This document shows, one piece after another, positions 12,368 through 16,107 of a stretch of 64,000 nucleotides of DNA. This DNA is from a virus. The notes under the pieces are model-generated. The model was not told the origin of the DNA. It was given only the letters and a program-made list of their open reading frames with translations, and made no database searches. How positions within the stretch are numbered: the first letter of the stretch is position 1; every line of letters starts with the position of its first letter. The DNA lies in the IMG/VR virus record IMGVR_UViG_3300036715_000153, positions 64,001 to 128,000 of that record. One strand, written 5' to 3'. A program made the position numbers and the translations under genes.

Positions 12368-13813
12368 TTAGTTGACGTTATGCCAAACTATTCCACCACG
12401 AACTTCTGTTTCTGGTTCGTCTCTCGCCATCGCAATAGATAGTATCTGTGGTAACATATCGTGTGCTAGTCTATCTTTATATGCAGCTAATACTGCCGCT
12501 CTCGCATCGCTGTTGTTGAGCGATTTAAAATATTCTTGAGTTGTAGCCCAAGCAAATAACACGATCGTCATAACCATATCGTCGTGTGCATTATCGTCTG
12601 CCTCGTACGAAGATCCTTTACTAATAAACGTAGAGAACTCTGAAATCGTCGCTTCGTCGTTTATAATAAGCAAGTCTGACTCGATAATCTGTTTTGCATT
12701 CGAACAACCGATGCGCTTCGTACGCTTGTCTGTCCTCAATCCGTTCTGCTGTTGCATTGATGCACCAGACATTAACTGTTGTCCGTGTTTAGTAGATTGC
12801 CCTACCCACGCAACGTTCTCGTAACCAAACTCATATACTAGCGTATCTGCGACTTGTTTACCCGTAGACTGAATCTCAATCAATACAAATGCTGTGTTAT
12901 ATTTAGTTGCAGTTTGATATATGAAGTCCGGGAATACCATAGGATTCATTCTATTATTCTTATACGTTGCGACCTGATTATACGGTTTAGCCGTAATGTC
13001 TATTACGCTGAATGCAGACGAATCCCCACCCACACCTTCAGAGCAGTCGACTGTCATCATGTATTGGTGACCTTCAATCGGGGATTGGTATATTTTTAAA
13101 TTGTTATGAATTAGTTCTGGATTAGCGTGTACTAGCTTGCGTAGTGTTTGTGAGTTTAATAGCGTACCAGATGAACCGATAAACTCTGCACCAAACTCTT
13201 GGTCGAACGTTTCTTGACCAATGTTAGAAATCGTATCTGCTTTCCATTTCTCATCTCTACCCGGTACGTCCCACCAGTTGATAGAGTTGGCTACGAACAG
13301 CGAACGTTTTGACTCCGCGTCTACCCACAGCTTATAGAAATGATTCAGACCTTTGGGTGTAGACACCAAGATAACCTTAGTTTCTTGACCAGATGAAATA
13401 GTGGGATATACTGAGTCCCAGAACTCTGCCCACTGAGTGCCCATGATAAAAGCTACCTCGTCTACAAACAGCAGACTGATGGACGTATTGTGTGAAACTA
13501 TTCCGTTGGCATAATATTTATTATCTTTAACCACGAATGCAGGATCGTACATCTTCTTACTACAGTTTATAATAGTTTTACTCGATACTTTACTTATACC
13601 CGATTCTGTCACTAACGCTGCACCATTGCGAATAGATGATGCCTTTTTCCATCCTCGATCAGTCATTAACGGGTGGTTGGGAGTTACTTCTATAGAATTA
13701 CCATTGATTGTCTCGAATTTAATAGTTTCGTCTGTGTCATATACAGCGACACCCGAAAAATCGGACCACCCGTCTGGTGTAAGTATTTCCCAATCGGTGT
13801 TATTTAGAAACAC
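12368..13813 (-). CDS. terL: Terminase large subunit, C-terminal half, fused to a C-intein
   Basis: After the intein (...GIVSHN): TSISLLFVDE (Walker B), VSTPKG, QEFGAEFIGS, and nuclease residues MTVDCSEG and HDDMVM. Confidence 0.95.
   Translation of the reverse strand: MFLNNTDWEILTPDGWSDFSGVAVYDTDETIKFETINGNSIEVTPNHPLMTDRGWKKASSIRNGAALVTESGISKVSSKTIINCSKKMYDPAFVVKDNKYYANGIVSHNTSISLLFVDEVAFIMGTQWAEFWDSVYPTISSGQETKVILVSTPKGLNHFYKLWVDAESKRSLFVANSINWWDVPGRDEKWKADTISNIGQETFDQEFGAEFIGSSGTLLNSQTLRKLVHANPELIHNNLKIYQSPIEGHQYMMTVDCSEGVGGDSSAFSVIDITAKPYNQVATYKNNRMNPMVFPDFIYQTATKYNTAFVLIEIQSTGKQVADTLVYEFGYENVAWVGQSTKHGQQLMSGASMQQQNGLRTDKRTKRIGCSNAKQIIESDLLIINDEATISEFSTFISKGSSYEADDNAHDDMVMTIVLFAWATTQEYFKSLNNSDARAAVLAAYKDRLAHDMLPQILSIAMARDEPETEVRGGIVWHNVN
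13487..13813 (-). other. C-intein (109 aa) of an atypically split intein
   Basis: MFLNNTDWEILTPDGW; block B TPNH; block F MYD; block G SHN followed by +1 Thr. Confidence 0.9.
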
Positions 13814-13926
13814 GAATCCGCCCGAGCTGGTAAGAAGTTAACTAACAAGTCGTGACGGTCATGCATCACTTCCCCGTGATTTACATCGATCGACAGCTTA
13901 GTTATGTAAAATGATTGAGTCATCAT
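13804..13926 (-). CDS. 40-aa bridging ORF overlapping the C-intein start
   Basis: AAGGAG RBS; MMTQSFYITKLSIDVNHGEVMHDRHDLLVNFLPARADSCF*; its last codons overlap the GTG at 13813. Confidence 0.45.
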   Translation of the reverse strand: MMTQSFYITKLSIDVNHGEVMHDRHDLLVNFLPARADSCF

Positions 13927-13988
13927 TGAAATCTCCTTTATCTTTGGTGCATAAAACGTAACAGTCTTTAGCTGTTACGATGTAGCAC

Positions 13989-14139
13989 CTATCCCTGATT
14001 TAAAATATACTGTTTTACTGTCTCCGTTGATGCTTGTCCAGTCGATGCTACAAAATATCCATTAGACCAAAAAGTTCTTTCTTTCCAAAAATATTTAGAA
14101 AGATCAAAATGTTTCCAAATTTCAATAGTTGTTTTCCAT
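13989..14139 (-). pseudogene. tnpA: Internally deleted Y1 transposase
   Basis: ATG GAA AAC AAC TAT joined out of frame to KTTIEIWKHFDLSKYFWKERTFWSNGYFVASTGQASTETVKQYILNQG*, the TnpA C-terminus with the YIxxQ catalytic Tyr. The HUH region is missing. Confidence 0.85.
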
Positions 14140-14208
14140 AATATATTATTTAGTGAAATATATTTTCAATTTATAGTGAAATATTAAAAATGATAACTAA
14201 ATAGTAGT

Positions 14209-15423
14209 ATGGAATTCAAAGCATACAAATTCAGAATATACCCAACAAAGGAACAAGAGAAAACTCTTGCTAAGTTCTTTGGTGCCAAACGATGGATTTT
14301 TAATCATTATCTTCACGAAAATAAACAACGCTTTCAGAATAAAGAAAAGCACCTTTCTAATTTCGATATTAACTATGATATTACAACTCTTAAAACATTA
14401 GAAGAAACTTCTTGGTTAAAAGAAATTGATTCTATATTACTACAGAACGCCAGTGAAGATTTACACACTGCATATTCGAATTTCTTTAATTCTATAACTG
14501 GTAAACGTAAAGGTCCTTCTATTTCGATCCCTAAGTATAAGTCGAAATATGATAAACAATCATATCGTACTCGCGGTGTAAAGGTGAACTTCGACGATAA
14601 TATAATAACTTTACCAAAAATTAAGAAAGTCAAGGCAGCTATTCATCGTAAATTCACTGGTAATATTAAATCATCGACAGTTTCAAAAACTGCATCTGGT
14701 CAGTATTATATTTCAATACTCGTTGAGGAAGATATTAAACTACTTCCTGCATCTGGTATCGAAATTGGTATTGATCTTGGTATCAAAGACTTGTGTATTT
14801 TGTCTAATGGTATCAAGTTTCAATCTCCTAGAATATTACTAGCAAAAGCCACGCTAGAATTAAAGAAGCAACAACGTAAACTAAGTAGAAAGCAAAAGAA
14901 TTCTAAAAATAGAGCCAAGCAGAAAATTAAGGTAGCTAAAGCATATCAACGAATAACAAATATTCGTAATGCTTACTATCACGAAATTTCTAATTATCTC
15001 GTTACGAATTTCGATGCAATATACATGGAAAGTCTCAATGTAAAAGGAATGCTAAAGAATCGTAAATTAAGTAGATCAATTCAAGAGTCTAGTTGGTCGA
15101 CATTAGTTAATATGATTCAATATAAAGCAGGATTTTACGGTAAAACTTTTCATCAAATTGGTAGATTTGTTCCTTCGACAAAAACATGTTCGTGCTGTAA
15201 TCATAAATTAGATTCGATTTCTCTTTCTACTAGAGAATGGTCTTGTCCGGTGTGCAATACACTTCACGACAGAGACCTGAATGCAGCATCGAATATTAAA
15301 AATTTCGGTCAATTAGATGTATATGATCGAATAATACCTTCACGTGCATCAAGTGAAGTGGAACTAAAAATTCCAGCGGCTCTATTGAAACACACCAGTA
15401 AAATCGAAAGAACTGTAGTTTAA
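14209..15423 (+). CDS. tnpB: RNA-guided endonuclease TnpB
   Basis: KAYKFRIYPT N-terminus; RuvC-I GIDLG; RuvC-II MESLNV; Zn ribbon CSCC/CPVC; RuvC-III DRDLNAA. Catalytic D-E-D intact. Confidence 0.97.
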   Translation: MEFKAYKFRIYPTKEQEKTLAKFFGAKRWIFNHYLHENKQRFQNKEKHLSNFDINYDITTLKTLEETSWLKEIDSILLQNASEDLHTAYSNFFNSITGKRKGPSISIPKYKSKYDKQSYRTRGVKVNFDDNIITLPKIKKVKAAIHRKFTGNIKSSTVSKTASGQYYISILVEEDIKLLPASGIEIGIDLGIKDLCILSNGIKFQSPRILLAKATLELKKQQRKLSRKQKNSKNRAKQKIKVAKAYQRITNIRNAYYHEISNYLVTNFDAIYMESLNVKGMLKNRKLSRSIQESSWSTLVNMIQYKAGFYGKTFHQIGRFVPSTKTCSCCNHKLDSISLSTREWSCPVCNTLHDRDLNAASNIKNFGQLDVYDRIIPSRASSEVELKIPAALLKHTSKIERTVV

Positions 15424-15498
15424 ACTACAGTTGGTGTGAGGACGGAGCAAGCGTAACAGTCTTTAGCTGTTACGCAGTTGACTACTATTTAACATCAA
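15330..15498 (+). ncRNA. Putative omega (re)RNA of TnpB; guide is the right flank TACTATTTAACATCAA
   Basis: Hairpins CTTCAC..GTGAAG (15338-15358), AACTGTAGT..ACTACAGTT (15411-15432) and the right-end hairpin overlap the tnpB 3' end. 5' boundary and guide length are approximate. Confidence 0.6.
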
Positions 15499-16107
15499 GG
15501 CTAATTGCTCTATGGTTAAATGCTTTATTTCGCCAGTGACTTTGTGTCGTATTGTTATCATGGTAGATGCATCTACACATCCACGAATTGCGCTTGAGCT
15601 AGTAGATGCTGCGATGATAGACGAACCATTTTCTAATTCGATACTACCTTTGTTCCACGTCACCACACCTTGTTGTAACCAACTAGGTAATAACTCGAAG
15701 GCAAATTTAAGACGACTTAAAATCTCTCTAGACGTAGCACCTTTGTTCGCTAGAATTGCAACAGTTTTACTCTTATTAAATAATATATAGTGAAGCATAA
15801 ACCCAACGGAAGAAGTAGACTTCCCGGACTGACGACACCACTTCGATAACACAAATCTATTATTGTTTATATCGTTTACATATTTCTTTTGATAATCGTG
15901 TAGATTAAATGGAATAATCCCTTTGTCTACGTGAACGATCTTCATATATGTTTCTATGAAGTAAACTGGGTCAGATTCACACTTAACAAATTCGTGAAGC
16001 TGTTCTGCTGTAAGCTCTTGTACTACTCCTACGGCTTTGAGCTTAGGATTACGATTGTAATACCTAGGGCCGTTATCAAATTTTAATCGCGCAGCTCCGG
16101 TTGTCAT
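15463..16107 (-). CDS. terL: Terminase large subunit, N-terminal half, fused to an N-intein
   Basis: [13 protein letters not shown], Walker [23 protein letters not shown], then intein Cys1. The stop codon lies inside the IS right end. Confidence 0.95.
15466..15579 (-). other. N-intein (38 aa; last 6 residues come from the IS end)
   Basis: Block A-like [26 protein letters not shown]. Confidence 0.88.

Follow-up and report, generated by a model that had tools for sequence, protein, structure and literature searches.

A TnpB-encoding IS200/IS605 element in the gap of a phage terminase gene fractured by a split intein

Fractured genes, including a gp17-like terminase locus broken at an unusual point, have been described earlier (Dassa, London, Stoddard, Schueler-Furman & Pietrokovski 2009, PMC2677866), and the atypically split inteins of the large terminase subunit (TerL) are known to consist of a short IntN (~25-37 aa) and a long IntC (~104-122 aa; PMC11766414; PMC2677866). 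The concept of homing by the RNA-guided nuclease TnpB is likewise established (10.1101/2023.03.14.532601; review PMC13565253); the copying of an insertion sequence (IS) into cut IS-free alleles by recombination is referred to as non-restorative transposon homing (2026 review PMC13565253), and in IStrons a group I intron is fused to IS605 or IS607 (10.1101/2023.11.20.567912). The locus described here was found in a window of 64,000 bp (bases 64001-128000 of the 140,394-bp IMG/VR virus record IMGVR_UViG_3300036715_000153): terL is divided between two same-strand open reading frames (ORFs) carrying the halves of a split intein, and the gap between these ORFs is filled by an antisense IS200/IS605 element with tnpB. 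Fractured genes and TnpB homing are each known; TnpB between split-intein halves is seen only in this genome, and a special link between the TnpB element and the intein is unproven. The locus is best explained (probability roughly 0.6) as an ancestral fractured terL with a decayed endonuclease slot, in which an IS insertion was tolerated and from which TnpB would be able to home into IS-free co-infecting relatives.

The terminase was found encoded over two adjacent same-strand ORFs with a split-intein half at the break of each; the break falls after block A, IntN is short, and the long IntC carries block B. All three ORFs and the element were located at the coordinates given in an initial annotation of this DNA, together with every feature named there; its list of parts stood as far as it went, and the tnpA remnant, the 40-codon ORF, the solo-hairpin copies and the late-promoter-like motif described below were added to it. 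The exteins are ~44-47% identical to TerL of cyanomyoviruses and of many uncultured myoviruses. In the 125 unsplit relatives one extein segment runs straight into the other at AIRG|xS; removal of the intein would therefore give a normal TerL of 548 aa (176 + 372). The boundaries of the IntN core were taken from an alignment with 17 split TerL-N proteins; the 38-aa IntN alone had no match in the PDB. IntC gave weak Hint-domain matches in Pfam, and its best PDB sequence match was 6dsl_B ('Consensus engineered intein CatC', E 3.1e-7, residues 3-108). All splicing residues and both terL ORFs are intact. Judged by sequence, the intein is of the known atypically split TerL family (AceL/GOS/Cat-TerL), to which the locus supplies a new member (Cys1, Thr+1, 30-residue IntN core).

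Read on the minus strand, the junction passes from the phage sequence ...LALMLNS through a hybrid codon to QLRNS-stop from the right end of the IS; only the last six IntN residues (SQLRNS, the first from the hybrid codon) and the stop are supplied by the IS, and all 30 core residues are phage-encoded. In-silico joining of the flanks gave the longer IntN tail that the initial annotation had quoted, ending 16 residues past ...LNS. The proposal made there, that the IS landed in a dispensable IntN tail and now gives IntN its stop codon, was borne out: the stop is read directly from the junction, IntN ORFs of some relatives end at the core, and the IntN of GOS-TerL tolerates trimming from 37 to 27 residues (PMC11766414). 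Because the core is complete, natural core-length IntNs exist and the GOS-TerL IntN can be trimmed, the insertion is probably harmless to splicing.

A search of 5.8 billion proteins returned many short TerL-N+IntN proteins; by alignment their IntN cores are of ~30 residues, some of the ORFs stop right after the core, and the tails are variable. Genomic context was taken for seven fractured-terL relatives (the four closest 70, 60, 56 and 61% identical). In all seven the IntN ORF is separate and is followed by a gap ORF of 168-359 aa; wherever the contig is long enough, the IntC+TerL-C ORF comes next. The gap ORFs resemble nucleases or their DNA-binding modules in 6/7 relatives: HNH with NUMOD3 in L052 and L054, GIY-YIG or NUMOD3 in L055, L057 and the P0088 contig, and a TnsA-like nuclease in L386; that of L385 belongs to no recognised family. 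Since the split ORFs and the gap nuclease gene are common to these relatives, the fracture and a nuclease-type gap gene are both read as ancestral to the group. It had been proposed that the intein was already split when the IS arrived and that the IS occupies the homing-endonuclease slot; the relatives agree with both, being split, some of them with IntN ORFs ending right after the core, and carrying an ORF exactly at this place in all seven cases.

Related split TerL inteins do not all share one insertion point but occupy several neighbouring ones (behind AIRG, AIRGxS or Walker B ...DE), and across split TerL inteins the gap genes are of unrelated families (HNH, GIY-YIG, TnsA-like, unknown), which suggests that the gap gene was repeatedly turned over among related loci. 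The P0088 contig has two NUMOD3 endonuclease genes, one in the gap of its fractured terL and the other immediately behind the C-terminal half.

No protein homing endonuclease gene was found in the gap of the present locus: tblastn with the endonucleases of four relatives gave matches elsewhere in the genome and none in the gap, and searches of the genome with Pfam HNH_3 and NUMOD3 gave no match, the NUMOD3 search being uninformative because its control matched nowhere either. A 40-codon ORF stands between the IS and IntC in the same layout as the relatives' endonuclease ORFs; its local alignment with the N-terminus of the L052 HNH endonuclease scored 38 (shuffles 22.5 ± 3.8, the score being reached by 2/500), and with modest confidence it is probably the remnant of a former HNH endonuclease gene. 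Elsewhere, at genome C1:46592-46945 (-) and window 30947-31243 (-), the phage has free-standing genes of HNH-like (E 5e-15 to the L054 endonuclease) and GIY-YIG-like type.

The inserted element has subterminal hairpins and no inverted terminal repeats, and its flanks join without target duplication. The left boundary is TTTAT|CTTTGG (13941/13942) and the right boundary ...TTGAC|TACTAT (15482/15483). In the related elements L142 and L143 (TnpB 75-76% identical) the right end is common up to ...TTGAC, after which divergence is complete; in L143 TTTAT likewise stands directly before the left end. This pentanucleotide is a known target of IS200/IS605 elements and of group A IStrons (PMC13565253). 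The sister element L143 (ena:ERZ27247794 k141_355200, about 1-1425; TnpB 76% identical) interrupts a tRNA-Met (CAT) gene: no tRNA was called by ARAGORN in the interrupted locus, and tRNA-Met was called after in-silico deletion of the element (TTTAT|element|...TTGAC), which is therefore an independent validation of the boundary rule applied to the terL IS. The tetranucleotides AAAA and CAAG before the hairpins presumably fit the IS608 pairing of guide and cleavage site with TTAT and TGAC, a rule reportedly due to Barabas et al. in 2008. Two other descriptions were tried and rejected: the repeated hairpin as a native phage terminator repeat (relatives have covarying hairpins at both ends, and removal of the element restores the tRNA gene), and a right boundary shifted by 2 nt on account of a 'GT' common to the closest relative (all copies end in GAC). 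Rfam gave no match at E <= 1 on either strand of 13700-15700, neither ribozyme nor omega family.

The tnpA remnant keeps the ...SNGYF... tyrosine region; the N-terminal half, with the expected HUH site, is absent. By its gene content and ends the element is an IS605-type transposon with divergent tnpA that appears to have lost the N-terminal half of its transposase. It is the sole full IS copy in the 140-kb genome, which has no other tnpA or tnpB; with only the remnant left and no other copy, the element is therefore non-autonomous in transposition. Its G+C content of 32.1%, against 40.2 ± 2.5% genome-wide, suggests that it is foreign and arrived fairly recently.

In TnpB the RuvC residues D189, E274 and D356 and the zinc-finger residues C327, C330, C346 and C349 are invariant in 24 aligned sequences (TnpB + 23 homologues). 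Most relatives have a C-terminus longer by ~17 residues; conservation is lowest in this tail, which is just as short in another homologue. The omega region folds with z = -5.5 vs shuffles, and its consensus structure (three-element alignment) comprises 40 pairs, 20 of them with compensatory changes; the predicted omega-RNA scaffold is thus structurally conserved. That the predicted guide is intein sequence, as proposed earlier, could be confirmed, the template being IntN coding sequence that adjoins TTTAT, the putative target-adjacent motif (TAM), in the joined site. For TnpB with such an omega RNA, TTTAT-TACTATTTAACATCAAGG would be a mechanistically plausible IS-free target. The predicted guide has no other genome match at <=2 mismatches, and its own locus is preceded by TTGAC rather than TTTAT; the genome is therefore not self-targeted. 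The site of the closest relative differs in both TAM and guide, and therefore only near-identical strains could be targets.

The closest TnpB homologue (75%) is encoded near uvsW, uvsY and gp23 on a T4-like contig; other viral TnpB loci reach 51-56% identity, and the best cellular homologues ~43%, among the matches listed (one genome per prokaryotic species). The alignment-based collection scans covered ~600 candidate stretches. The T4 late promoter TATAAATA has ATAAATA as its core. This heptamer was found a few bases before the tnpB start in 7/8 viral loci of at least 50% identity, in 4/72 distant viral loci and in 0/76 cellular ones; in L060, L061, L063, L064, L065, L079 and L142 it stands 5-6 nt upstream of the start codon. 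The corresponding motif in the window is CTAAATA (14195-14201), 6 nt before the tnpB ATG; no Shine-Dalgarno sequence is visible before the gene. ATAAATA in this position would give a nearly leaderless late transcript, and by homology and motif the TnpB is assigned to a phage-resident clade.

Three solo-hairpin copies of the IS ends (Table 1) show that this IS was active in the genome at an earlier time; they would be either the residue expected from recombination between the identical end hairpins of a full copy or mobile minis resembling palindrome-associated transposable elements (PATE-like). One intergenic solo copy adjoins a TATAAATA motif at 10153-10160 on the minus strand.

Table 1. Features of the fractured terL locus and of the IS copies (window positions unless marked as genome).
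Feature	Position	Strand	Description
IS200/IS605 element	13942..15482	+	1541 bp; antisense to terL
TTTAT target/TAM	13937..13941	+	immediately 5' of left end
Left-end hairpin	13957..13979	+	8-bp stem, 7-nt loop; AAAA before it; twin in right end
Right-end hairpin	15452-15474	+	identical to left-end hairpin; CAAG before it
tnpA remnant	13989..14165	-	58 C-terminal codons; Y1_Tnp PF01797 positions 70-121 of 121, E 2.2e-10, 37.6 bits
tnpB	14209..15423	+	404 aa; HTH_OrfB_IS605, OrfB_IS605, Cas12f1-like TNB domain (Pfam)
Omega-RNA scaffold (predicted)	15341..15482	+	overlaps tnpB 3' end; includes right-end hairpin
Predicted guide template	15483..15502	+	TACTATTTAACATCAAGGCT; antisense of IntN codons ...LALMLNS; directly after conserved TTGAC
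TerL-N+IntN ORF	15463-16107	-	214 aa; Terminase_6N profile positions 6-94 (Pfam)
TerL N-extein	15580..16107	-	176 aa; end ...SSSAIRG
IntN	15463..15579	-	38 aa + stop; Cys1-led 30-residue core, then NS, then SQLRNS
40-codon ORF	13804-13926	-	between IS and IntC; AAGGAG ribosome-binding site; stop overlaps IntC GTG start
IntC+TerL-C ORF	12368-13813	-	481 aa; IntC first, then TerL C-extein
IntC	13487..13813	-	109 aa; GTG start; block B TPNHPL; terminal ...GIVSHN, Thr at +1
TerL C-extein	12368..13486	-	372 aa; begins TSISLLFVDE with Walker B; nuclease domain; Terminase_6N positions 95-213 and Terminase_6C
Solo-hairpin mini-copy	10150..10205	+	after TTTAT; left-end 5' part, hairpin, right-end 3' part ...CAGCCGAC; tail-fibre intergenic
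Second solo-hairpin copy	36485..36523	-	left-end type; intergenic
Third solo-hairpin copy	genome C1:37690-37719 (L004 about 1490-1540)		outside the window

The locus lies inside a T4-type late-gene block, with a gp16-like small terminase gene (16109-16564, minus strand) directly upstream of the terL pieces. The ends of the record are classed in IMG/VR as direct terminal repeats, and a terminal repeat of 127 bp was measured. Megablast of the locus against GenBank phages gave no match. At 8597-10078 (minus strand) a 493-aa tail-fibre-like protein is encoded that has ~8 tandem repeats, each of ~40 residues (…WxxIAWNGTVFAAVAxTGTGNRVMTSPDGITWT…).

Recurrence of the arrangement was not observed: terL halves next to TnpB were found in 0/160 other loci (80 viral and 80 metagenomic), one viral TnpB locus having an unsplit terL ~2 kb away, and tnpB in 0/7 of the fractured-terL relatives. 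Exact-pattern scans of IMG/VR for the reconstructed empty site found none, and those of IMG/VR and GTDB genomes for the IS hairpin found no second copy; single-protein scans of IMG/VR returned distant TerL relatives only, plus one TnpB locus. Both searches suggested at the outset, for an IS-free terL allele (run on IMG/VR) and for other split inteins flanking tnpB (160 TnpB loci, seven fractured relatives), thus came back empty. In the literature no paper was found with a natural TnpB element between split-intein halves.

The preferred course of events would be as follows. The phage would have inherited a T4-type terL fractured by a split intein of the AceL/GOS/Cat-TerL kind, with a free-standing homing endonuclease gene between the halves; the endonuclease gene would have decayed to the 40-codon ORF, the ribosome-binding site and the IntC stop/start overlap being kept. 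An IS200/IS605 element of the phage-contig TnpB clade would then have inserted 3' of TTTAT, two codons past the 30-residue IntN core, with the exchange of a dispensable 16-residue IntN tail for six IS-encoded residues and a stop; later the element would have lost most of tnpA and kept tnpB and a structured omega RNA with the adjacent IntN sequence as guide. TerL of 548 aa (junction AIRG-TSISLL) would still be made by trans-splicing. TnpB and its omega RNA would probably be produced late in infection and, at co-infection, would cut TTTAT + TACTATTTAACATC... wherever a genome of this lineage lacks the IS, and recombinational repair would then copy the IS into the cut genome, as in non-restorative transposon homing. 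Nothing essential was broken by the insertion, because terL was already two ORFs; the link between intein and IS is one of location in a permissive gap, and the two are not a functional unit.

Several points weigh against this course of events. The arrangement comes from a single genome, and with neither an IS-free allele nor a second occurrence, homing and recency are not demonstrated. The endonuclease likeness of the 40-codon ORF is weak, is to one relative only, and its score was reached by 2/500 shuffles; CTAAATA in the window is one mismatch from the ATAAATA of the relatives; no close cellular TnpB was among the ~600 candidate stretches listed, hence its absence is unproven. Within the IS, TTTTAT follows the left-end hairpin on the terL sense strand, and the omega region holds another site of hairpin and T-run; at these sites the IS might reduce transcription of the IntC half, the expression of which may be lowered. 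Carried further, such polarity or an impaired IntN would mean that terL is crippled and that the genome is a defective or very recent variant, and the altered IntN tail could be counted towards this as well; with both ORFs and all splicing residues intact, the IntN core complete, shorter natural IntNs in existence and the record a 140-kb assembly with a 127-bp terminal repeat, a crippled terL is very improbable. Joining of the IS into terL by the assembler, conceivable for a genome of metagenomic origin, is hardly credible: the junctions follow the family rules to the base (TTTAT left, TTGAC right), removal of the IS restores an ORF that resembles the closest relative's IntN up to ...LNS with a tail of comparable length, and three solo copies of the same IS ends are present in the same genome.

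The truncated tnpA, the TnpB C-terminus ~17 residues short of most relatives, the degenerate promoter-like motif and the collapse of the other genome copies to solo hairpins would all suit an inert relic, a decaying passenger with inactive TnpB and omega RNA that is kept only because the gap is neutral. A relic has a low though appreciable probability, as tnpB is open over its full length and lacks none of the catalytic or zinc-binding residues, no consensus helix is missing from the omega scaffold, and the shortened tail is the least conserved part of the protein and equally short in another homologue. The initial annotation had gone in the opposite direction and regarded the locus as a protein-splicing counterpart of IStrons, with terL made a safe harbour for the IS by trans-splicing. 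Neither proposal could be upheld: the intein is ancestral, is not contained in the IS and is not carried along by it, and the insertion is between two separately translated ORFs, so that splicing is not the rescue. It is for these reasons unlikely that TnpB took over the homing-endonuclease role in an adapted composite of intein and IS (a protein-splicing analogue of an IStron) that spreads by RNA-guided homing or excludes relatives, even though in relatives this gap is a hot spot that has taken up nuclease genes of unrelated families (HNH, GIY-YIG, TnsA-like), the protein endonuclease of the slot is missing from this phage, both TnpB and the omega RNA seem functional with IntN sequence as the predicted guide, and the TnpB clade appears adapted to phage late expression. 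An intein-less terL would, moreover, be without a target for the guide, and the intein would not be deliverable to new alleles; the closest relative's site differs in TAM and guide, and neither the 160 TnpB loci nor the 7 fractured relatives showed the arrangement a second time. The still broader idea of a phage-adapted, late-promoter-driven, transposase-less TnpB lineage that uses fractured-gene endonuclease slots as safe harbours, displacing decayed homing endonucleases and taking over homing and marker exclusion with an intein-derived guide, is a long shot; if true, that lineage would be a natural RNA-guided successor in the homing-endonuclease life cycle.

Under the preferred explanation (tolerated insertion into an ancestral, decayed endonuclease slot), TnpB, if active, would be a compact natural RNA-guided nuclease placed where protein homing endonucleases normally sit, in an essential phage gene, and non-restorative transposon homing between co-infecting phages could be tested on the locus as it stands. 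The TnpB clade with the late-promoter-like motif, the solo-hairpin scars and the tRNA-borne sister element bear on the life of IS605 elements in virulent phages; atypically split inteins of the kind found here serve protein labelling.

Compared with the fractured genes (PMC2677866), the locus has the same two adjacent same-strand ORFs, each with a split-intein half, a terminase intein broken after motif N1 with a long IntC, and phage origin; the full fractured-gene arrangement with a free-standing endonuclease gene is seen in the relatives of this phage, whereas the gap here contains the 40-codon remnant and an antisense IS605-family RNA-guided nuclease and no protein homing endonuclease. The intein halves are similar in size to those of AceL-TerL, GOS-TerL and Cat-TerL (PMC11766414; PDB 6DSL): IntN 25-37 aa there vs 38 here, IntC 104-115 aa vs 109. 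Cys1 is kept as in AceL-TerL and Cat-TerL, a terminal HN is present, and IntC resembles CatC; unlike in AceL/GOS/Cat-TerL, the +1 residue is Thr, not Cys, and the IntN tail is partly IS-encoded. The insertion point AIRG|TS lies ~10 residues before the Walker B 'DE|C' site of several other members.

With ISDra2, IS608 and the Geobacillus elements (10.1101/2023.03.14.532601; PMC13565253) the element shares subterminal hairpins, the absence of target duplication, a T-rich pentanucleotide target that equals the TAM, and a TnpB with RuvC D-E-D and zinc finger; its predicted omega RNA, like theirs, overlaps the tnpB 3' end and would take its guide from the right flank. It differs from them in the reduction of tnpA to a 58-codon remnant, in being phage-borne, in belonging to a clade with a T4-type late-promoter-like motif and in its place inside an essential fractured gene. 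As in IStrons (10.1101/2023.11.20.567912), a TnpB element is tolerated inside an essential coding region, the product of which would be restored by a splicing process, and TTTAT is also a group A target. Unlike in IStrons, no ribozyme is present (Rfam), and splicing would fall to a protein intein which predates the IS, is no part of it and is not mobilised by it: the IStron ribozyme is part of the transposon and mobile with it, whereas the split intein of the present terL is independent of the IS.

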